Sequence record: PP400788
DNA from: Escherichia phage FL33
DNA length: 64,000 nucleotides
Direction: 5' to 3' (one strand)
Shown here: positions 8,461 through 22,423 of the stretch, one piece after another
How the letters are laid out: every line of letters starts with the position of its first letter
How positions within the stretch are numbered: position 1 is the first letter of the stretch
Translations under genes and position numbers: made by a program
The notes under the pieces: model-generated
Databases searched by the model: none
The model's input: only the letters and a program-made list of their open reading frames with translations
What the model was told of the DNA's origin: nothing

Positions 8461-10048
<1,588 letters not shown>

Positions 10049-10056
10049 AATAAAAT

Positions 10057-10070
10057 GGGCCTTGCGGCCC
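10057..10070 (-). promoter_or_regulatory. RNA hairpin between Shine-Dalgarno and start codon of denA (split-SD arrangement)
   Basis: Minus strand AAGGAG-UGGGCCGCAAGGCCCA-UUUUAUU-AUG: GCAA-looped hairpin sits between the SD and the ATG. Confidence 0.5.
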
Positions 10071-10075
10071 ACTCC

Positions 10076-11245
10076 TTAAAAGTATTTTTTAAAACTCATC
10101 ATAACTTTATCATCAACATCATTATCAATCTGTGCAACAAGGTAAGATGACAGTTCTACTTCTTGTGGCGCGGATTGAACATTATCAGAATTAAGATATT
10201 CACGAATCCAAGGATATGGATGTTTAACCGGAGCATCGGTAATTGGGCATGGAAGACCACACTGTTTCATACGAGATACAGTTAAGTAATCAATAAAGCT
10301 CCACATGCTATTTGTATTTAATCCAGGAACATCACCATCTTTAAATAAATGAACTGCCCAATCTTTTTCTTGGCGGTTAACTTCCATGAAAATATCAACT
10401 GCTTCTTGTTCACACTCTTGAGCAATTTTAACCCATTCATCGCCATCAGTGCCAAGTTGAAGTTGACGAATAATATATTGGGTGCCTTTAAGGTGAAGCT
10501 GCTCATCACGAGCAATGAACTTCATAATCTTGGCATTACCTTCCATGATTTCCATGTTTTTGTGGAAGTTAAATGTACACGCGAAAGATACGTAAAAACG
10601 AATAGCTTCCAGGGCGTTGATTACATGAAGGCAAAGATAAAGAGATTTCATTAGTGCTCGTTTAGTACATTCAACAACTTTGCCTAACTCTTCTTTACGA
10701 AATCCTTCTGATAAAATTCCTTCATAATCTTCAACCGCATTCTGATATTCACGAGTCTTAACTAGAACATCATCGTAATAGCGACCAATGGACTCGGCAC
10801 GTTTCATAATAGCTTTATCTAATACAATCTCATCAAATACCTTTGACGGATCAGTATAAAGATTTCGCATAATATGAGTGTATGAACGACTGTGAATAGT
10901 TTCACTAAAAGTCCATGTAGCAACCCATGTATCAAGACTTGGGTCTGAAATTAACGACATAAGTACAGCAGACGGCGCACGACCCTGAATGCTATCCAAA
11001 AGTGATTGATACTTCAAGTTATTAGTAAAAATATCTTGCTGATATTGAGGAAGCTTGTTAAATTGTGCAGCATCCATCATCAAGTTTACTTCTTCAGGAC
11101 GCCAGAAAAATGACAACTGCTTTTCGGTTAAATCTTCAAAAACTTTATGACGTTGAATATCATAACGCGCAATACCAAGACCTGAACCGAAGAACATAGG
11201 TTCTTTTAAAACATCAACTGGATTTGTATTAAAAACTGTGCTCAT
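10076..11245 (-). CDS. nrdB: ribonucleotide reductase small subunit (class Ia beta), uninterrupted
   Basis: 389-aa ORF with di-iron/tyrosyl-radical motifs (EAIRFYVSF, ARDEQLHL); no intron. Confidence 0.9.
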   Translation of the reverse strand: MSTVFNTNPVDVLKEPMFFGSGLGIARYDIQRHKVFEDLTEKQLSFFWRPEEVNLMMDAAQFNKLPQYQQDIFTNNLKYQSLLDSIQGRAPSAVLMSLISDPSLDTWVATWTFSETIHSRSYTHIMRNLYTDPSKVFDEIVLDKAIMKRAESIGRYYDDVLVKTREYQNAVEDYEGILSEGFRKEELGKVVECTKRALMKSLYLCLHVINALEAIRFYVSFACTFNFHKNMEIMEGNAKIMKFIARDEQLHLKGTQYIIRQLQLGTDGDEWVKIAQECEQEAVDIFMEVNRQEKDWAVHLFKDGDVPGLNTNSMWSFIDYLTVSRMKQCGLPCPITDAPVKHPYPWIREYLNSDNVQSAPQEVELSSYLVAQIDNDVDDKVMMSFKKYF

Positions 11246-11296
11246 AAATTTTCCGCTTAGTTAATAGATAGTGACTCGTCCGTGAGTCAAATTATA

Positions 11297-12286
11297 TCAT
11301 AATTTACAGGATGAACAATCTTCAGCTTTTGGAGTTTCTATTTCATAATCATCAGTACCAGAACCATCACGGGTATTATGATAATAGAAATTTTTTCCGC
11401 CAAAATACCAAAAATACAAAAGGTCATCAATCATTACAGACATTGGAACCTTTCCTTTTGGAAAAATCTGCGGGTCATAATATGTATTCGCTGAAGCTGA
11501 TTGACATACCCATTTCAGCATAATAGCTACCTGCGTAAGATAAGGTTTATTACCTTTCTTAGCTAATTTCCATGTATAATCATAGAGGTCTATGTTATGT
11601 TCAATATTGGGCACGACTTGATTAAAGGAACCCTCTTTTGATTCTTTAACCGAGACTGGTCCACGTGGAGGCTCGATACCATTTGTACTGTTAGAAACTT
11701 GGGAAGATGACTCACATGGCATAAGTGCTGATAATGTGCTATTACGGATGCCAAAGAGCTTAAGGTCTTCCCGCAGCGACGACCAGTCACAAACGTATTT
11801 TGGAGCTGCGATTTGGTCAATCTTTTTATTGTACCAGTCGATAGGTAATTCGCCTCGAGACCAACGAGTGTCTGAATAATATTCGCAAGGTCCTTTTTCT
11901 TTGGCGAGCTTAATGGATGCTTTGATGAGTCCATACTGTAATCTCTCAAATAGTTCATGTGTTAAATCGTTAGCATCTTCATAAGAAGCAAAGTTACTTG
12001 CCAGCCAAGCTGCATAGTTAGTAACACCTACACCAAGATTTCGACGCTTTTTAGCTTTTTCTGCTTCAGGAACTGGATATCCTTGGTAATCCAAAAGATT
12101 ATCAAGAGCACGAACTTGAACTTCTGCTAATTCATTAATTTTATCTTGGTCTTGCCAATCGAAGTTATCTAATACGAATGCGCTAAGGGTACAAAGCCCC
12201 ACTTCTCCCTTGTTTTCAATAACTTCTATTGTAGTATACTCATCATCTTCGTAAAATTCATCTACAAATTCATAATCAATATTCAT
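11297..12286 (-). CDS. nrdA: ribonucleotide reductase large subunit, C-terminal piece (nrdA-b)
   Basis: 329-aa ORF; after about 23 acidic non-RNR residues it aligns with the C-terminal part of class Ia NrdA (GEVGLCTLSAF, NSTLSALMPCESSSQ, C-terminal CSSCKL redox tail); ATG overlaps end of HNH ORF. Confidence 0.8.
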   Translation of the reverse strand: MNIDYEFVDEFYEDDEYTTIEVIENKGEVGLCTLSAFVLDNFDWQDQDKINELAEVQVRALDNLLDYQGYPVPEAEKAKKRRNLGVGVTNYAAWLASNFASYEDANDLTHELFERLQYGLIKASIKLAKEKGPCEYYSDTRWSRGELPIDWYNKKIDQIAAPKYVCDWSSLREDLKLFGIRNSTLSALMPCESSSQVSNSTNGIEPPRGPVSVKESKEGSFNQVVPNIEHNIDLYDYTWKLAKKGNKPYLTQVAIMLKWVCQSASANTYYDPQIFPKGKVPMSVMIDDLLYFWYFGGKNFYYHNTRDGSGTDDYEIETPKAEDCSSCKL

Positions 12287-12986
12287 TTAATTCTTCTACC
12301 TTTTTTCTAGTAATTCCTAAAGCTTTAGATGCTCGATGTATTGATTGATATTCTATACCGTTTATTTTTACAGCAATTAAGTTATGGGGTTTTAATCCCT
12401 TTGGATGAGGTTTACTGACGAAAACTAAATTATCAAGCTCTGAAATCTTATCCAATTTCTTACACTTAAATCCTTTGTGATGCGACCGTTTACCTTTACA
12501 AACGGCTGACATAGTAGACGGATTTAAATTATGCTCTTTACAAAATTCGTTAAGACCTCGATGAATTTCCTCATGACCATCCGGAAATGTAAACACCCAA
12601 GATGTTTGAAGTCGAGATTTAACTTCTGGAGACATAGGAATACCTTTGTTCCAAGCTGGTTTGCCTTTATTATTTTCAGATACAGAAATAGCCAATTTTC
12701 TTCTAAGCCACCCATGACGTTTATTGGTGTTCTTTCGTTCAATATTATCTTCAGAATAAACACACATCATATTAGCAGCAAATATCAATTTATGATTATC
12801 TGGATATATCTTTACTAATAATTGATGAGCTATGTAATGCTCTTCTGGTGTCAAATCTACCAGGTTTTCCTTTGTATCAGAACCACCAATACACAGAGGT
12901 ATAATATGGTGTGATTCGGTATAGCAATCTAATTTTCTGTTCTTAGCTTTAGAAATAAGGTTATTGTAAATTTTAGAATAATCCAT
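12276..12986 (-). CDS. HNH homing endonuclease (free-standing, MobE/I-HmuI-like) inserted in nrdA
   Basis: 236-aa ORF with own SD (AAGAGGAAAAGTT-ATG); HNH core ESHHIIPLCIGGSDTKENLVDLTPEEHYIAH; NUMOD-like GKPAWNKGIPMSPE; C-terminal helix-turn-helix-like INGIEYQSIHRASKALGI. Confidence 0.8.
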   Translation of the reverse strand: MDYSKIYNNLISKAKNRKLDCYTESHHIIPLCIGGSDTKENLVDLTPEEHYIAHQLLVKIYPDNHKLIFAANMMCVYSEDNIERKNTNKRHGWLRRKLAISVSENNKGKPAWNKGIPMSPEVKSRLQTSWVFTFPDGHEEIHRGLNEFCKEHNLNPSTMSAVCKGKRSHHKGFKCKKLDKISELDNLVFVSKPHPKGLKPHNLIAVKINGIEYQSIHRASKALGITRKKVEELNEY

Positions 12987-13031
12987 AACTTTTCCTCTTG
13001 TTATGGATTATTTATTAACGGTCTGTGTACT

Positions 13032-14465
13032 TTATTTGCTTTGAATTATACCGCCAGGATTAGCTTCATAAAACTTAGCTACATCCGACTTCTTAATTTT
13101 GATTAAACGGGTTTGTTGGCTATTCACATCATTTGTTGGAATAGCAATTTCACAGCACAAGTTACTCTGACGAATAGGTGCCTTTTCACGAATAAACGGA
13201 GTATAGTTATTCGTATTATCAATGAACTGCACATAAATCCTTGCTGTTCCTGAGCGTTCAGTCATGAGTAATTCAAATAGTTCACGGGCTTTAATACGCT
13301 TTTTACGAATATTAGGGTCTTTTTCTGCGGCTTCGTACAATTCACGGAAACGGTCTTGGTCTTTAAAATAAGAATAATAAAGCTCGCCACCCATTTCATG
13401 CGGACTGAACAAAGTAATGTAGTCGTTCTTTCCAAAACGTTCCATCATCAAATCATTCAGCTGGACGCCATAATCCATATGACGGATACGGTTTTCTTCT
13501 ACGCCTTTGTTATTTTTCAAAACGAGAAGATTTTCAACTTCCAAATGCCAAATAGGATAATAAGCAGTAGCAGCGCCGCCACGAATTCCGCCCTGTGAAC
13601 ATGATTTAACAGCAGTCTGAAAATGTTTCCAAAAAGGAATAACACCAGTATGACGCACTTCACCTGTGCCAATCTTAGAACCTTCGGCACGAATCATACC
13701 AACGTTAATACCAATTCCAGCGCGTTTGGAGATATATTCAACAATTGAAGCAGAAGCCTTATTGATAGACTTCAGCGAATCACCTGCTTCAATAACAACG
13801 CATGAACTAAATTGCCGAGTCGGAGTACGACAACCAGCCATAATAGGAGTTGGCAATGAAATCTGTCGAGTAGATACTGCTTCATAAAAACGAATAACAT
13901 GTTTTAATCTGTCAACAGGTTCATCTTGATGCAATGCCATTCCAATAGTCATAAATGCAAACTGTGGAGTTTCATAAATTTGACCAGTGGTTTTATCTTT
14001 AACGAGATATTTTTCTTTTAATTGCATCGCCCCGGAATAAGTAAATTCCATATCCCGCTCGTGCTTAATTTTTGATTCTAAAAATGTAATTTCTTCTGCA
14101 GAATATTTTGACAACAATTCAGGGTCATATTTACCTTCATTTACACAGTAAGAAATATGGTCAATAAATGAACGTGGTTCATACTGACCGTAAACATGCT
14201 TACGAAGAGCAAACATTAAACAGCGTGCAGCTACATATTGATAATCAGGCTCTTCAACTGAAATAGAATTCGCAGCAGCCTTAATTACAATGGTTTGAAT
14301 GTCATCAGTGGTCATTCCATCACGGAGATATGATTTAATATTTTCATATAATTCATAAGGATCTACAGATGTTCCTTCAGCTGCCCAAGATAAAACTTTA
14401 ATAATTTTTTGCGGGTCAAAGCTTTGAGAAACACCACTACTTTTGATAACATTAATTAATTGCAT
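13032..14465 (-). CDS. nrdA: ribonucleotide reductase large subunit, N-terminal piece (nrdA-a)
   Basis: 477-aa ORF; class Ia NrdA N-terminal region through active-site loop SNLCCEIAIPTNDVN, then about 29 non-RNR residues and stop. Confidence 0.8.
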   Translation of the reverse strand: MQLINVIKSSGVSQSFDPQKIIKVLSWAAEGTSVDPYELYENIKSYLRDGMTTDDIQTIVIKAAANSISVEEPDYQYVAARCLMFALRKHVYGQYEPRSFIDHISYCVNEGKYDPELLSKYSAEEITFLESKIKHERDMEFTYSGAMQLKEKYLVKDKTTGQIYETPQFAFMTIGMALHQDEPVDRLKHVIRFYEAVSTRQISLPTPIMAGCRTPTRQFSSCVVIEAGDSLKSINKASASIVEYISKRAGIGINVGMIRAEGSKIGTGEVRHTGVIPFWKHFQTAVKSCSQGGIRGGAATAYYPIWHLEVENLLVLKNNKGVEENRIRHMDYGVQLNDLMMERFGKNDYITLFSPHEMGGELYYSYFKDQDRFRELYEAAEKDPNIRKKRIKARELFELLMTERSGTARIYVQFIDNTNNYTPFIREKAPIRQSNLCCEIAIPTNDVNSQQTRLIKIKKSDVAKFYEANPGGIIQSK

Positions 14466-14782
14466 AAGTCCTCAACTTGAAAATCGTCTTTAAACAATCG
14501 GTTAACTATATGAGCTATTATATCACCATGACACGGCTTTGGTTTACATGTGCATCCTAGCCTCATTCCACGTAAAGGCTCTAAATGTGCTTTAGTTATT
14601 TCTCCGGATTTAATTCGACGTATAAAATCTTTTTTGAATAATTCAATGGCAGCCTCCCGGCTGCCAGCATCTTTACCGACGTAATTTCCCCAAAATGTAC
14701 CACGGTGAATATTAACATCAAAGTCGGATTTATATTTATTCACTACCTGGCATAGACGGCCCGCGCGGTGATAATTCGTCAT
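14456..14782 (-). CDS. hypothetical protein (td-nrdA interval)
   Basis: 108-aa ORF; Cys/His cluster [11 protein letters not shown]. Confidence 0.55.
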
Positions 14783-14999
14783 ATTGTTTTTCCGTTAAAA
14801 CAGTAATATCATAGTAACAATCTGAAGAAGTTTTAACTGTAGAAATTTTATTATCAAAATACTCACGAGTCATTTTATGAGTATAATATTTTTTGCCATA
14901 AATGATAATAGGCTGATTTGGTCCTGGAACTTCTAACTCACTTGGGTTAGGAAGTGTAAAAAGAACTACACCAGAAGTATCTTTAAATCGTAAAATCAT
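14736..14999 (-). CDS. hypothetical protein (td-nrdA interval)
   Basis: 87-aa ORF. Confidence 0.5.
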
Positions 15000-15022
15000 A
15001 TATCCTCACAATTAATAATTAA

Positions 15023-15334
15023 TTACACCGCCATTTTTCCTTTCAAGACGCCGTGGGACTGATAATCTTTGAGAACGAAATCTTTAGGCCTGAGTTTAAG
15101 AATGTATTCCAATTGTTCTTTAGTAGAAAGATAGCGGAATTTATAAGGCAATCCGCCTATTACCAGTTCACAAAGCTCTTTAGGTTCACGACGCAAAATT
15201 TCTTTACATTGTTCTACGTGATTCATATAGATATGAGTATTACCACCGGAAAATATCAAATCTCCCGGAATAAGATTACACATCTTAGCTACAATATGAA
15301 CTAACGTAGCATATGATGCAATATTAAATGGAAG
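15023..15334 (-). CDS. td: thymidylate synthase, exon 2
   Basis: Encodes C-terminal 103 aa (LPFNIASYATLVHIVAKMCNL...); 3' splice site after intron terminal G at 15335. Confidence 0.9.
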   Translation of the reverse strand, partial: LPFNIASYATLVHIVAKMCNLIPGDLIFSGGNTHIYMNHVEQCKEILRREPKELCELVIGGLPYKFRYLSTKEQLEYILKLRPKDFVLKDYQSHGVLKGKMAV

Positions 15335-16350
15335 CATTATGTTCAGATAAGGTCGTTAATCTTACCCCGGAATTATATCCAGCTGCATGTCACCATGCAG
15401 ATCAGACTATATCTCCAACTTGTTAAAGCAAGTTGTCTATCGTTTCGAGTCACTTGACCCTACTCCCCAAAGGGATAGTCGTTAGGCATTTATGTAGAAC
15501 CAATTCCATTTATCAGATTTTACACGATAAGTAACTAATCCAGACGAAATTTTAAAATGTCTAGCTGCATCTGCTGCACAATCAAAAATAACCCCATCAC
15601 ATGAAATCTTTTTAATATTACTAGGCTTTTTACCTTTCATCTTTTCTGATATTTTAGATTTAGTTATGTCTGAATGCTTATGATTAAAGAATGAATTATT
15701 TTCACCTGAACGATTTCTGCATTTACTACAAGTATAAGCAGAAGTTTGTATGCGAACACCGCACTTACAAAACTTATGGGTTTCTGGATTCCAACGCCCG
15801 TTTTTACTTCCGGGTTTACTGTAAAGAGCTTTCCGACCATCAGGTCCAAGTTTAAGCATCTTAGCTTTAACAGTTTCAGAACGTTTCTTAATAATTTCTT
15901 CTTTTAATGGATGCGTAGAACATGTATCACCAAACGTTGCATCAGCAATATTGTATCCATTAATTTTAGAATTAAGCTCTTTAATCCAAAAATTTTCTCG
16001 TTCAATAATCAAATCTTTCTCATATGGAATTTCTTCCAAAATAGAACATTCAAACACATTACCATGTTTGTTAAAAGACCTCTGAAGCTTTATAGAAGAA
16101 TGGCATCCTTTTTCTAAATCTTTAAAATGCCTCTTCCATCTCTTTTCAAAATCTTTAGCACTTCCTACATATACTTTATTGTTTAAAGTATTTTTAATCT
16201 GATAAATTCCGCTTTTCATAAATACCTCTTTAAATATAGAAGTATTTATTAAAGGGCAGTCCTACAATTTAGCACGGGATTGTCTACTAGAGAGGTTCCC
16301 CGTTTAGATAGATTACAAGTATAAGTCACCTTATACTCAGGCCTCAATTA
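15335..16350 (-). mobile_element. td group I self-splicing intron (1016 nt) carrying I-TevI
   Basis: Intron 5' end reads UAAUUGAGGCCUGAGUAUAAGGUGACUUAUACUUGUAAUCUAUCUAAACGGGGAACCUCUCUAGUAGACAAUCCCGUGCUAAAUUGUAGGACU on the minus strand, matching the remembered T4 td intron; exon 1 ends GGU; intron ends AAUG. Confidence 0.9.
15482..16219 (-). CDS. I-TevI: I-TevI GIY-YIG homing endonuclease (intron-encoded)
   Basis: 245-aa ORF MKSGIYQIKNTLNNKVYVGSAKDFEKRWKRHFKDLEKG... with GIY-YIG motif and C-terminal zinc finger/DNA-binding region. Confidence 0.92.
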   Translation of the reverse strand: MKSGIYQIKNTLNNKVYVGSAKDFEKRWKRHFKDLEKGCHSSIKLQRSFNKHGNVFECSILEEIPYEKDLIIERENFWIKELNSKINGYNIADATFGDTCSTHPLKEEIIKKRSETVKAKMLKLGPDGRKALYSKPGSKNGRWNPETHKFCKCGVRIQTSAYTCSKCRNRSGENNSFFNHKHSDITKSKISEKMKGKKPSNIKKISCDGVIFDCAADAARHFKISSGLVTYRVKSDKWNWFYINA

Positions 16351-16899
16351 ACCCAAGAAAACATCTACTGATCGTTGATACCACTGCAAATCCAAATAGC
16401 CATTACGCACATTAAACTGATAGAACATATGACAAGGCGGTAATGCCATCTGCTTGAGTTCAGCTGGATTCCATGCTGAAACAATTTGACGCCTATCATT
16501 TGGCAATTTTTTAATACGATCAATAACTTCTATAATTTGGTCTACACCACCAAAATCACGCCACTGTTTTCCATAAATTGGACCAAGTTCACCGCTATGG
16601 TATCCTAAATCTTTTGCTTGATTTTCGTAATTTTCATCCCAAACTGTTTTGCCTTGGATTAACGAATCATGTTGAATTAATCGCAAATCATTTACGTTAG
16701 TACTTCCTGACAAAAACCATATTAGCTCAGCAATACAAGCTTTCCAGGCGAGCTTCTTAGTCGTTACTGCAGGAAAACCTTTAGTTAAATCCCAGCGTAA
16801 TTTAGTACCGAACAAAGCAATTGTTCCTGTGCCTGTTCGGTCATCGGTTTCATAGCCATTTTCAAAAATGTCTTTAATTAAATCTTGGTATTGTTTCAT
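16351..16899 (-). CDS. td: thymidylate synthase, exon 1
   Basis: 183 aa; TS motifs (TKKLAWKACIAELIWFLSG, PPCHMFYQF active-site Cys); reading frame hits an in-frame stop at the first intron codon. Confidence 0.9.
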
Positions 16900-16944
16900 T
16901 TAGTACCTTATATAAATTATAATACATTTTATGAAGCTAAATAA

Positions 16945-17295
16945 TCAATACGGTTTAGCATCAAATTTTCTTTCAATTTCAGGCGTGAAATACAATTCTT
17001 TACCGCGTTTGGAAAAGCGACCAATAATATGATAATTATTCTCATCAAACGTAATATTGCCAATATCCATAGCTTTCAACCAAATATCGATATTTCTATC
17101 CAGTTTTATATCAAAATTCCAATACGGAGAACTATTACCGAAAATACTGCAAGCGGATTCAGTGCAATAACTGCTGCTATAAATCTTGTCTTTGGGAACT
17201 ACTAATTGATAGACGCCTTTGATAAACTGAGGACCCTGCCATTTTGGTTGTTTCGCGTCTTTTTCTAATAGAATAGGATAATAATTAAAGTTCAT
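16945..17295 (-). CDS. hypothetical protein inserted between frd and td
   Basis: ORF of 120 aa from a GTG, or 116 aa from ATG 17295 (MNFNYYPILLEKD...); no family recognised. Confidence 0.55.
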   Translation of the reverse strand: MNFNYYPILLEKDAKQPKWQGPQFIKGVYQLVVPKDKIYSSSYCTESACSIFGNSSPYWNFDIKLDRNIDIWLKAMDIGNITFDENNYHIIGRFSKRGKELYFTPEIERKFDAKPY

Positions 17296-17315
17296 ATTTT
17301 CCGCCACGCGTTATT

Positions 17316-18145
<830 letters not shown>

Positions 18146-18155
18146 ATTATTTTCC

Positions 18156-18398
18156 TTAAACAGACTTTTTCACAATTTTCCAATCAGCTTTAAACTGTTC
18201 AACGTCAGAGTGGTAAATCCAGAATCCTGCGCTTTCTCCATCCTCATAAAGAGGGCATCCATCGCATTCATCTTCCCATCCCATGTCACGTAAAAGATGT
18301 TCAGCTTTTTCAACAAGTTCAGAATCTTTACCTATGATATTAAAATACCATTTACCTCTAACTTCTGAATCTTTAATGCTCTGGCGTTGTAATCTCAT
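18156..18398 (-). CDS. hypothetical protein (32-frd interval)
   Basis: 80-aa ORF. Confidence 0.55.
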   Translation of the reverse strand: MRLQRQSIKDSEVRGKWYFNIIGKDSELVEKAEHLLRDMGWEDECDGCPLYEDGESAGFWIYHSDVEQFKADWKIVKKSV

Positions 18399-18423
18399 TT
18401 TATTCTCCTTAGTTGATAGGGTA

Positions 18424-18453
18424 ATAGTATCACACTACTACCCTACTGTAAAC
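18424..18453 (-). promoter_or_regulatory. T4-type early promoter
   Basis: GTTTAC ... TACTAT on minus strand. Confidence 0.55.
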
Positions 18454-18833
18454 TACTTTTTGAAAGTTTTTCGCAAAAGTTCAATGATTTCATCTACATT
18501 GTTTTCGTCTACAATGCAGTGAATTTTTGTTACGCCAGAAATCTTGTCTTCGACTTCATCTTCTTCAGAAGTCGGTTCTTTATACTCACGAAAACAATGA
18601 AATTCGTCTTCACAAATTTCTAAAAGTCTATCTTTGAGGTAAAAATGCTTTCCATTTGCGCATTCAATGTGTTTTACTGCTTTATATCCATTAGCGACAG
18701 AAACTTCTTTAACTTCAAACCATCCGCCATTATCTCGAATAGCTTTAACTATTGATGAATTAGAACGTGGGCTATAATTAATAAATGTATCAATAAGTCT
18801 TGGAACAAGTTCATACTTTCTACCAGTATACAT
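18453..18833 (-). CDS. hypothetical protein (32-frd interval)
   Basis: 126-aa ORF downstream of CUUCGG-like hairpin. Confidence 0.55.
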   Translation of the reverse strand: MYTGRKYELVPRLIDTFINYSPRSNSSIVKAIRDNGGWFEVKEVSVANGYKAVKHIECANGKHFYLKDRLLEICEDEFHCFREYKEPTSEEDEVEDKISGVTKIHCIVDENNVDEIIELLRKTFKK

Positions 18834-18877
18834 TGTGTTTTCCTCATTTTAACGGGGCTGTAATAGCCCCTTGATAA

Positions 18878-19108
18878 TTATTGTTCAATCAGTCCCATAT
18901 AAAATTCTGCATCTTCAGAATCCATGCCATCACAATATTCATTAGCCATAAAGCGGGTGAGGTCTTCAAGAGGACCTTCAATGACAATAGAAAAATTGCA
19001 ATAATTGGGATCATCATGAATACTTGTGATACTAAGTTCAGGATAACGATTACGAATAATTTCTTCAATATATTCAAAATCAACGATGTCAATATCAACT
19101 TTAGCCAT
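18878..19108 (-). CDS. hypothetical acidic protein
   Basis: 76-aa ORF downstream of early promoter 19153-19182. Confidence 0.5.
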
Positions 19109-19152
19109 ATTATTTTCCTCTTTTAATCATCAGCAGTATTGCCGATAGTTGT

Positions 19153-19182
19153 ATAGTACCATGGAATGACAAGAATGTAAAC
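19153..19182 (-). promoter_or_regulatory. T4-type early promoter
   Basis: GTTTAC ... TGnTACTAT; shares a 25-nt near-identical block (GTAGTTGATAGTTGTATAGTACCAC family) with promoters at 35773, 38902 and 39405. Confidence 0.6.
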
Positions 19183-19205
19183 TGTTTTGTGAAAAAATTT
19201 TAAAA

Positions 19206-19234
19206 TAAAAAAGGGGACCTCTAGGGTCCCCAAT
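19206..19234 (-). terminator. intrinsic terminator after gene 32
   Basis: Minus strand GGGGACC-CUAGA-GGUCCCC followed by UUUUUUAUUUUA. Confidence 0.7.
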
Positions 19235-19253
19235 TAATTAGTAATATAATCTA

Positions 19254-20162
19254 TTAAAGGTCATTCAAAAGGTCATCCAGGTCCGTGTCATCAGCACCAG
19301 ATGAACTGCCAGAGCTTGAGCTCATAAAATCATCTTCAGTTTTTGTTTTGAAGTCATCAACATTGAATGCATCCAAATCATCAGCAACTTTATCAGCTTT
19401 CTTAGCGGCAGTTGCTGCGGCACCGCCCATAGCAGCAGTTCCCATAACTTGACTGAACTTAGTGCTCAGTTCTTCAAACGATTTGAATTTATCTTTAGAA
19501 GTCATTTCAGAAAGGTCAACCATTTGTTCGAACAGTTCTTTCTGGAAAGATTCATCATCAATGTTTGGAATCGCAGATTGATTCAGGAATTTAGATTCGT
19601 CGTAGTTACTAAAACCAGAAACTTGTTTAACTTTCAGTACAAAGTTAGCACCTTCCCACGGACAAGTTACATCAACCGGAGTTTCACCCATTTCAACATC
19701 AACTGCAATCATTGCATTGATTTTATCCCAGATTTTCTTACCGAAACGGTATTTAAATACTTTACCTTCATTTTCTGGAGCAGCTGGGTCTTTTACTACA
19801 AGAATGTTAGCCCAGTAAGAAGTTTTACGTTTAACAAGACCGTACTCTTTATTGTCAGTGTTATACAAATCATTTTTACTGATGTACTGACATACTGGAC
19901 AAGAATCGTAATCACCGTGGGTAGATGAACAGTTTTCAATATACCATTTACCATTTTTCTTGAAACCGTGATTTACAAGAATTGCGAATGGTGCTTGTTC
20001 ATCATTTTTAGACGGAAGAAAACGAATTACTGCTTGACCGTTACCCGCATTATCGAGTTTCAGTTTCCACTCGCCTTTATCTTCAGAAGAAAAACCACCT
20101 TTATTTCCAGCCAGTTTAGCCATTTGTGCAGCGAGTTCAGCAGTAGATTTACGTTTAAACAT
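19254..20162 (-). CDS. 32: gp32 single-stranded DNA-binding protein
   Basis: 301-aa ORF; zinc-binding [10 protein letters not shown]; acidic Ser/Asp-rich C-terminus; preceded by the gene 32 leader. Confidence 0.93.
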
Positions 20163-20232
20163 TTTTATTTCCTTTTTAATTTAATTAACAGTTGGTGCTA
20201 TGACGATGTATGACCTCATAGCTGGTCAGTGA
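20163..20232 (-). promoter_or_regulatory. gene 32 mRNA leader: A/U-rich translational operator plus upstream RNA pseudoknot
   Basis: Minus strand reads ...CUGACCAGCUAUGAGGUCAUACAUCGUCAUAGCACCAACUGUUAAUUAAAUUAAAAAGGAAAUAAAAAUG, the classic gp32 autoregulatory element. Confidence 0.75.
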
Positions 20233-20244
20233 GATAATTATAAT

Positions 20245-20252
20245 CTATTTAT
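20245..20252 (-). promoter_or_regulatory. late promoter TATAAATA upstream of gene 32
   Basis: Exact TATAAATA on minus strand about 85 nt upstream of the 32 start. Confidence 0.6.
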
Positions 20253-20261
20253 AATAAGCAA

Positions 20262-20915
20262 TTAATACTTACAGGATTTCACAGTTTCAATGAAAACATT
20301 TTTAGCTTTCTGTGAATCAATATTTAAAATTTTTCTATAAGCTTTTAACTTTATAGAATAATTATTCCAGACTAAATTATCAGTCTGTTCATCATGTTTA
20401 TCAATTATATTTAAAAACGAATCAAGCAAGATAAACGTCTCAAACGAAATTATATTCGATTGAAGTAGTTTAAAAATATAACTTGATTGAACTTTTGGAT
20501 TATATTCAAAGATTTCTTTAAAAGCAGAAACTTCAACTTTTTTACTAAAATAGTAAATATTGCGAATATCTTCTTCAAATTTAAATTTAACTTGCTTTAA
20601 GCGACCGATATATTCACGATAAAATACTAATGCATCAGCGTCAGAGATATCACCAATCCAAGCATCTTGGTTAGCTACAAGATTGCTAATAAAAATTAAA
20701 GTCAATTCTTTTAATTTATACTTTTCTGATAGCTTTTGGAAAAAATACTTATCCCTTCGCTTTTGATAAGCGGCATCAGACACCCGCATGCACCAATTGT
20801 ACTTAATAACATCATATTTTCCATTCATATGTTGTTTTATCATTAAGTATAATTTATAAACTGATTTACCATCAATATATCTTTCACCACCAGCAGGCAT
20901 GCGGAGTTTAATCAT
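20262..20915 (-). CDS. 59: gp59 helicase-loading protein
   Basis: 217-aa ORF MIKLRMPAGGERYIDGKSVYKLYLMIKQHMNGKYD...; T4 gp59 is 217 aa. Confidence 0.88.
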   Translation of the reverse strand: MIKLRMPAGGERYIDGKSVYKLYLMIKQHMNGKYDVIKYNWCMRVSDAAYQKRRDKYFFQKLSEKYKLKELTLIFISNLVANQDAWIGDISDADALVFYREYIGRLKQVKFKFEEDIRNIYYFSKKVEVSAFKEIFEYNPKVQSSYIFKLLQSNIISFETFILLDSFLNIIDKHDEQTDNLVWNNYSIKLKAYRKILNIDSQKAKNVFIETVKSCKY

Positions 20916-21259
20916 AGCAGAAAGTCTAACGTATTCGTTTTTTCACATCTAACAACAGAAGGGCGTAAAAGATTTTCGTCAATAGCTTCTGACTGAATTT
21001 TTTCAATTATACCCGAAGGAATAAATTTAGCAAATTGAGTTTCAGGAATAGAGTTTTCTTCCAAGAATGCTGTCGTAGCTTCAAGATAACTCATTCCAAA
21101 TTCTTCTACCATTTTTTCAATAATAAATCCATTTTCTTGGCGGTCAAGAAGCTTTGCAATTTCATCCTTTTCTTTCTTAATTGAAAGTTCTTTTTCTGAA
21201 AGCCCGGCCTCATCGACCGGGCGAATATCATTTAGAGAAAACTGTGTCATAAAGTTCAA
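20912..21259 (-). CDS. 33: gp33 late-transcription co-activator
   Basis: 115-aa ORF (112 aa if start is ATG 21250); position between dsbA and 59. Confidence 0.75.
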   Translation of the reverse strand: MNFMTQFSLNDIRPVDEAGLSEKELSIKKEKDEIAKLLDRQENGFIIEKMVEEFGMSYLEATTAFLEENSIPETQFAKFIPSGIIEKIQSEAIDENLLRPSVVRCEKTNTLDFLL

Positions 21260-21497
21260 CTACCTCTTCAGTTTCAGCTTCAAACACATCACGGTTATCT
21301 TTATGATATAGAGCCAAAAGACGATTAAACATCTTACCATCAACACCAAGTTCATCTTTGGCACGAATTCGAATATCTTTAATCAATTCATTATAACCAG
21401 AAATTTTCAGTTTATGATCAGATGCTTCTTTAATAAATTTAGCCAAATCTTCGCCATGGATAGCTTCATCAAATTCAACCATTTCTTTTTTAGCCAT
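21228..21497 (-). CDS. dsbA: DsbA double-stranded DNA-binding protein
   Basis: 89-aa ORF between rnh and 33; T4 DsbA is 89 aa. Confidence 0.75.
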   Translation of the reverse strand: MAKKEMVEFDEAIHGEDLAKFIKEASDHKLKISGYNELIKDIRIRAKDELGVDGKMFNRLLALYHKDNRDVFEAETEEVVELYDTVFSK

Positions 21498-21505
21498 TAT
21501 TCACC

Positions 21506-22423
21506 TCAAAATTCATTAATGCTATTAGTTAATTTAGAAAGACCCGCTTTTACAAAATATGAATAAATTTTGCCACGCGGTGGTAATTTATATGAATTAT
21601 AGTAATTCACAATGTTTGAAGCAATATTATCAGGAATATAATCAAAATCAATTAGAACTAAATTTTCTTTATAACGATTATATTCAGATTCTGTAAGAAG
21701 CACCTTAGCTTGCTCACGGTCATTAGCAATAGCTTCAACTATTGAAGTTTTCATTGAAGGAGTTCGTTCACCTTCAACTTTGGTAAACCAAAAGTCAGAT
21801 CGTACTTTAACTGAAGCAACGTTATCCTTTTTGTCGCCTTTAAGGATTTTAGTCATACAATCAATTTCAGCAGAACCGCTTTTAATTTTAACCCATTTCT
21901 TATGCATCGGCGACCATTGCTTAACATTTGGGTATTTGTGAAGCTGTGTAAAGTCACCATCCGATGAAATGATTAAAATCTTATGTCCTTCTAAAGAGAA
22001 CTTTTTAACAAGAACAGCAATATGGTCATCTGCTTCATACTTATCAATATCCATAACAATGTATGGCATATAAGCTTTCAATTCATCTATAACTTTATGG
22101 CTGGATTCAAAATAACCTTCCCAGTCCCAAGTAGATTCTTCTCGTGCTTTTCCACGGTTTTTCTTATAGTAATAAGCAAAATCACGACGCCAGTATCCAG
22201 ATTTCGCGTTATCGATACACAGTACAATTTTAGTGTATCCAAACGTTTTTGCTTTTTTGACATTAAACTTAATTGAGTTCAATATCAAATGACGAACCAT
22301 TGATAAATTAATTTTTTCTTTATCTGGGAAGTTTACTAAAGCAGTTGAAAGCGCAATTTGACTAAAGTCAATAAAGCAAATTCCTTCTTTGTAATCTTCA
22401 TCCAACATCATTTCTAAATCCAT
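21506..22423 (-). CDS. rnh: RNase H (FEN-1/5'-3' exonuclease family)
   Basis: 305 aa from ATG 22423 (MDLEMMLDEDYKEGIC...); conserved acidic clusters of flap endonucleases. Confidence 0.88.
   Translation of the reverse strand: MDLEMMLDEDYKEGICFIDFSQIALSTALVNFPDKEKINLSMVRHLILNSIKFNVKKAKTFGYTKIVLCIDNAKSGYWRRDFAYYYKKNRGKAREESTWDWEGYFESSHKVIDELKAYMPYIVMDIDKYEADDHIAVLVKKFSLEGHKILIISSDGDFTQLHKYPNVKQWSPMHKKWVKIKSGSAEIDCMTKILKGDKKDNVASVKVRSDFWFTKVEGERTPSMKTSIVEAIANDREQAKVLLTESEYNRYKENLVLIDFDYIPDNIASNIVNYYNSYKLPPRGKIYSYFVKAGLSKLTNSINEF

Follow-up and report, generated by a model that had tools for sequence, protein, structure and literature searches.

A catalogued but uncharacterised gene between frd and td in Escherichia phage FL33 and its apparent loss from T4

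An additional gene between frd and td

In Escherichia phage FL33 (PP400788), an open reading frame (ORF), here named orfX, separates frd, which encodes dihydrofolate reductase (DHFR), from td, which encodes thymidylate synthase. The stretch of FL33 that was analysed is 64,000 nt long (here the window), and coordinates refer to it unless another phage is named. In T4, frd (145109-145690) and td (ending at 145112) overlap directly at an ATGA, an arrangement reportedly described by Purohit and Mathews in 1984. An earlier note on the window, which had described the T4 overlap correctly, took orfX for an extra ORF inserted between the two genes. The comparisons described here reverse that direction. 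orfX is present in T2, T6, most Tequatroviruses and other genera, and T4 appears to represent a rare, derived state that arose through a recent deletion of 420 bp in T4, not through an insertion in FL33.

Every gene in the frd, orfX and td region is on the minus strand. As the earlier note had it, an ORF of 116-120 aa lies between frd and td at 16945-17307, and the gaps it gave, 20 nt on the frd side and 45 nt on the td side, are exact. Read from an ATG at 17295, orfX (16945..17295) encodes 116 aa followed by a TGA stop (16947..16945); the ORF list and the phrog_1928 match, substitution analysis and AlphaFold model described below support this coding sequence. Its upstream neighbour is frd (17316..17900, with a TGA stop at 17318..17316) and its downstream neighbour is td exon 1 (16348..16899, with the ATG at 16899). 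The 20 nt that separate the frd stop from the orfX start codon (17296..17315, AAATAACGCGTGGCGGAAAAT) contain a weak Shine-Dalgarno-like GGCGGA. On the other side, the 45 nt from the end of orfX to the td ATG (16900..16944) were conserved when aligned with T2 and T6, and contain td's own Shine-Dalgarno-like sequence, TAAGGT, 7-8 nt 5' of the td ATG. The 901 bases around orfX match Escherichia phage FL34 at 100% identity, and RB32 and RB33 at approximately 96-97%, and by its sequence the window can be assigned to Tequatrovirus.

Probable loss of orfX from T4

Comparison of the window with T4 revealed the same flanking genes, with the 3'-end of frd identical as far as the stop codon and the 5'-end of td identical from the ATG, but T4 lacks the 420 bp between two TAAATGAAA direct repeats. 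The left copy (17311..17322, minus strand, TAAATGAAAtaa) spans the frd stop codon and the right copy (16891..16902, minus strand, TAAATGAAAcaa) spans the td start codon, with perfect 9-nt matches at 17322..17314 and 16902..16894, respectively. The copies are identical at 11 of 12 positions and are spaced by exactly 420 bp (repeat search, family D2). When aligned, the T4 sequence is made up of the left flank, one copy of the repeat and the right flank. T4 and T6 share 96.5% identity in frd and 96.9% in td exon 1, and on its td side T4 is 94-97% identical to phages that carry orfX (X when homologues are compared) and 80-83% identical to a phage that carries a different gene, Z, in this position. 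When the complete T4 genome was searched in all six frames with hidden Markov models (HMMs), no homologue was returned of X, of Z or of a further gene, Y, that is described below (best E 0.66). As the segment absent from T4 is the repeat-bounded 420 bp, and as the T4 flanks are approximately 97% T6-like, T4 is likely derived from a T6-like, X-bearing ancestor in which deletion between the short TAAATGAAA repeats would have generated the T4 junction.

Both T2 and T6 have orfX, under the name RB32ORF229c, between frd and td. RB32ORF229c, which is also found in RB14, RB32, RB51 and others, is the same gene as orfX, in the same position and of the same length, and the T2 and T6 copies differ from orfX in the window at one spot. 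There, at codons 41-45 (17155..17175, minus strand), a one-codon indel and substitutions separate SSSYC in the window from SSCF in T2, T6 and phage F2.

The earlier note had proposed comparing the junction across T-even genomes. When a 200-nt probe for the T4 junction was used to query the phage collection, 514 records matched, and a spread sample of 60 was examined. The match was split by approximately 415 bp, corresponding to orfX, in 40 of the 60. An uninterrupted T4-type junction, without the ORF, was found in only four, namely two records of T4 itself, vB_EcoM_112 and HY03. Only the frd half of the probe was matched in the remaining 16, of which two, fPS-2 and F2, were examined. The slot in fPS-2 holds Z, a different gene of 68 aa (PHROG 9550) that overlaps frd at an ATGA and td at a TAATG stop/start. 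F2 has an X that is 91% identical to that in the window, and its flanks have diverged. One extra A in F2 (L012:3090-3135; TATAAAAATGAAATAG versus TATAAATGAAATAA) abolishes the frd stop, and the F2 Frd is 12 residues longer and overlaps the start of X, as in other genera. As F2 reads the stretch homologous to the 20-nt frd–orfX spacer as this C-terminal extension of Frd, the spacer in the window appears to be degenerate former coding sequence.

Homologues of X that share 27-47% identity with it were found directly 3' of frd, mostly overlapping its end, in Jiaodavirus JD18, Gelderlandvirus Melville, Winklervirus Gravdalen and Kagamiyamavirus EcS1. The same slot is occupied in two Karamvirus-like phages that have no genus in the record, Enterobacter phage MY742 and Klebsiella phage kv_tblp2, and relatives in Morganella, Providencia and Proteus phages adjoin the DHFR gene wherever one is annotated. 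In most of the non-Tequatrovirus relatives examined, X is followed by a second gene, Y, and in some Y is followed by Z. X and Y are paralogues (hhalign probability 99.3%, E 9e-21) that belong to the same PHROG. In other Tevenvirinae genera, Y was located at L004:2809-3156, L005:2814-3185, L006:2814-3185, L007:2790-3143 and L002:2832-3191. The Y proteins of Gelderlandvirus, Winklervirus, Kagamiyamavirus, Karamvirus-like and metagenomic relatives share the motifs QKxW, HGxY and GRFxKxG…F with X, but differ from it in an insertion of approximately 20 residues (APTIxxYKRNPxKY) after QKxW. The tandem arrangement points to a duplication long ago, and the two products may form a heterodimer. Y was not found in the window or in any Tequatrovirus examined, and no paralogue of orfX was found elsewhere in the window.

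The closest X from outside Tequatrovirus (61% identity) is in a metagenomic contig with the order frd-X-Y-Z-td and overlaps of 4-17 nt throughout; a second metagenomic contig has frd-X-Y-td. Between the window and JD18, Frd shares 44% identity, X 31% and Td 83%, and the divergence of X appears to run in step with that of the flanking frd and td. The simplest history would start from an ancestral frd–X–Y–(Z)–td block, of which lineages have since lost different parts. In most T4-like phages, T2 and T6 included, one, two or three additional genes separate frd from td, and the textbook T4 overlap would then be the scar of a recent deletion, seen in a low percentage of sequenced relatives, and not the ancestral arrangement.

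orfX is a catalogued gene

The earlier note had recognised no family for the orfX product, but one exists. The protein matches the phrog_1928 profile with an E value of 1.3e-33 (residues 8-116 on profile positions 2-125 of 126) and is 100% identical to a 116-aa cluster representative, P0001. orfX is thus the already catalogued RB32ORF229c / PHROG 1928, an ordinary, uncharacterised accessory gene. Protein similarity and profile searches, which the earlier note had suggested, yielded this match but nothing in Pfam, NCBIfam or PDB sequences. When orfX was used to query phage records with tblastn, matches were returned from 580, of which 362 were at least 90% identical and 218 were below 60%.

Pairwise ratios of non-synonymous to synonymous substitution (dN/dS, Nei-Gojobori) for orfX were 0.03-0.04. 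The window and F2 copies differ with a dS of 1.09 and a dN of 0.044, and all 11 changes between T2 and T6 are synonymous. Together with the family match and the predicted fold, these figures mark orfX as a genuine gene under strong purifying selection.

The family is annotated as hypothetical across hundreds of genomes, and all cluster members are so named. Some records of orfX carry the labels 'putative homing endonuclease', 'putative glucose-1-phosphate adenylyltransferase' or 'putative dihydrofolate reductase' (e.g. MZ501066, MZ501089, NC_054937, PQ571308 and OK272484). Profile searches gave no support for any of the three, and the first two are exposed here as misannotations in the public record. 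Searches of the literature by name and accession, for the frd–td region and for accessory genes found no paper that discusses orfX, and in the review by Petrov (2010) frd and td appear only as auxiliary-metabolism genes. PHROG 1928 combines strong constraint, restriction to phages and a confidently predicted fold, and is likely to have been overlooked because the model phage T4 lacks it. The practical value of the finding is modest; it corrects a T4-centred assumption.

Predicted structure and conserved residues

An AlphaFold2 model built from a 45-sequence alignment had a mean predicted local distance difference test score (pLDDT) of 91.6 and a predicted template modelling score (pTM) of 0.84. 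The fold is thus predicted with confidence, and the model had no significant structural neighbour. The variable SSSYC/SSCF site is in the most variable loop, which is also the least confidently modelled (block 41-50, mean pLDDT 72). Nine residues, Q16, W19, G27, Y29, G92, F94, K96, G98 and F103, are all present in the window protein; each is either invariant in the alignment or conserved in at least 90% of its sequences. As there is no invariant or near-invariant acidic, His or Cys residue among the 45 sequences, no conserved catalytic set is apparent. The family has a median isoelectric point (pI) of 8.8 and conserved aromatic and basic residues, which would be in keeping with a protein that binds single-stranded DNA, RNA or oligosaccharide.

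Scans of the window protein and all 45 family members against Pfam and NCBIfam returned no match, and a profile search of PDB sequences returned nothing below E 0.1. PADLOC recognised no family in the window protein and gave two single-member hits, both above E 0.01, among the 45. When 1.84 billion cluster representatives were searched exhaustively with a profile, 41 hits of 37-139 aa were obtained, two of them seemingly truncated, all of which were single-domain proteins without fusions. Wherever the genomic context of a family member could be seen, it was T4-like, either a phage or a metagenome contig, and the family appears to be phage-restricted and narrow in distribution.

The closest known folds for comparison are the oligonucleotide/oligosaccharide-binding (OB) nucleic-acid-binding domains, such as those of HIN, Teb1/RPA, Cdc13, S1 and SSB. 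However, no Pfam match to known OB families (S1, CSD, SSB, RPA, tRNA_anti and others) was found in the 45 members, and no PDB profile match below E 0.1. We tentatively suggest that the orfX product may act early in infection as an OB-like protein that binds nucleic acid or a partner protein, has no catalytic activity and is conditionally dispensable.

Alternative origins and roles

Three observations could instead speak for an insertion: the 11/12 direct repeat can also be read as microhomology or as a target duplication, orfX is patchily present among near-identical phages, and the T4 ATGA junction looks tidy. They would fit an ancestral overlap of frd and td into which a 420-bp orfX cassette, perhaps mobile, entered in the lineage of FL33. 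We consider such an entry improbable. X sits in the same slot in other genera, in Karamvirus-like phages and in metagenomic relatives at 27-47% identity, diverging along with frd, and the outgroup closest to the Tequatrovirus X has X-Y-Z. Within Tequatrovirus, X has diverged to a dS of approximately 1 together with its flanks, and T4-type junctions are the rarity among the sampled records (4/60). At the left end, 'ATGAAATA' is homologous to the codons of the F2 Frd extension and is not a relic of a td start; a ATGAAATAA mini-ORF at the frd stop, considered as such a relic and hence as a sign of insertion, was dropped as F2 reads the same bases as the C-terminal extension of Frd. It is more improbable still that orfX is a free-standing homing endonuclease or another selfish mobile gene. 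Records from the BASEL collection annotate it as a homing endonuclease, its presence is polymorphic, and homing endonucleases abound in the region, with I-TevI in the adjoining td intron and, in T4, seg/mob genes close by. Yet none of the 45 members matched GIY-YIG, HNH, LAGLIDADG or PD-(D/E)xK domains in Pfam, NCBIfam or PDB, and none of the near-invariant residues is acidic, His or Cys. Moreover, the fixed position, vertical descent across genera, divergence in parallel with frd and td, strong purifying selection and a length of 116 aa, shorter than typical T4 seg/mob genes, are all at odds with a mobile gene. That orfX is a chance open frame that is not translated, as its weak Shine-Dalgarno sequence might suggest, is scarcely credible given its dN/dS of 0.03-0.04, conservation of the protein across genera down to 27% identity and a confident fold driven by co-evolution. 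We conclude that deletion from T4 of a resident gene best accounts for the sequences compared.

Anti-defence or host takeover is the role of most of the small accessory ORFs of T4 that have been solved, such as Acb1, Acb2, Arn, Dmd and IPI*. By this base rate, and with about the same low probability as the OB-like binder, X may bind a host protein or immune signal, have no connection to nucleotide metabolism and persist or disappear depending on which hosts a lineage encounters. X is a small gene in an early position that T4 can do without and that has been lost repeatedly, and its family is phage-restricted and narrow, with 41 clusters in 1.84 billion representatives. However, no match to PADLOC, which covers defence and not anti-defence proteins, or to a known family was found, and the very low dN/dS and deep positional conservation, while compatible with an arms-race gene, are atypical of one. 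A link to the neighbouring enzymes seems unlikely: X, with Y and Z, would be an accessory or adaptor of the deoxyribonucleoside triphosphate (dNTP)-synthesising complex that binds DHFR or thymidylate synthase, or tethers them to single-stranded DNA or gp32 at replication forks. The invariable location of X between frd and td across many genera, with overlaps of the translational-coupling type, is in keeping with such a role, as are the hints of an OB-like fold, the basic pI and a strength of purifying selection expected for contact with conserved partners. However, T4, the phage in which the dNTP-synthesising complex was defined, has none of X, Y and Z, and gene overlaps are generic in T4-like early regions. 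It would be bolder to propose that X, its paralogue Y and the 68-aa Z form an unrecognised functional module of T4-like phages with a new or extremely divergent small beta-barrel fold, either as a DHFR–thymidylate synthase accessory and tethering set or as a new kind of counter-defence binder. We give this proposal a low probability; such a module could have been missed for decades because T4 deleted all three genes.

Start codon and expression signals

A longer reading of orfX from a GTG at 17307 (16945..17307, 120 aa) is also open. The GTG lacks a preceding Shine-Dalgarno-like sequence, and the alignment with homologues does not extend beyond the ATG at 17295. As the homologue alignments begin at MNFNYY, and as the exact cluster representative is 116 aa and the T2 and T6 annotation 115 aa, the ATG is the likelier start.

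The earlier note had also pointed to a late-promoter-like TATAAATG immediately upstream of orfX. This sequence is present at 17324..17317, but it consists of the last codons of frd (GTA TAT AAA TGA, V-Y-K-stop), and T4 has the identical sequence with no ORF behind it. The canonical late-promoter core, TATAAATA, from which it differs, occurs six times in the window and not at this site, and TATAAATG was therefore rejected as a late promoter.

The nearest early-promoter-like site upstream is at 18424..18452 on the minus strand (GTTTACA, 17 nt, TGATACTAT), where 9 of 12 consensus positions match and a TG extension is present; it is recognised by consensus match alone. A further early-promoter-like sequence follows the gene 32 terminator, and a scan of 16300..18500 found no terminator-like site. 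The 18424..18452 site probably drives a transcript that covers frd.1, an 81-aa ORF, frd, orfX and td. T4 expresses frd and td from prereplicative transcripts that are polycistronic. From the upstream early-promoter-like sites and the lack of a terminator-like site between, we infer that orfX is co-transcribed early with frd and td. Sequences resembling the MotA box (WWTGCTTYA) number 30 in the window, where shuffled sequences gave an expectation of 12.2 ± 3.3, an excess that is consistent with many T4-type middle promoters. None falls within 8764-21617, and hence none is near frd, X or td.

Neighbouring genes

The 81-aa ORF (RB32ORF231c / PHROG 3183; 17900..18145, minus strand) is immediately upstream of frd, and its stop overlaps the frd ATG. 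It is present in T2 and T6 but not in T4, in which a gap of approximately 70 nt separates frd from frd.1. As this ORF is also missing, T4 appears to have been trimmed on both sides of frd.

Downstream of orfX, a group I intron (15338..16347, minus strand) that contains the gene for I-TevI (15482..16219, minus strand) separates td exon 1 from td exon 2 (15023..15337, minus strand). An Rfam scan of 14500-19500 at the gathering threshold returned no family, and the ORF-interrupted td intron goes undetected at that threshold. The intron with I-TevI is found as in T4 and T6, and T2 has X but no intron.
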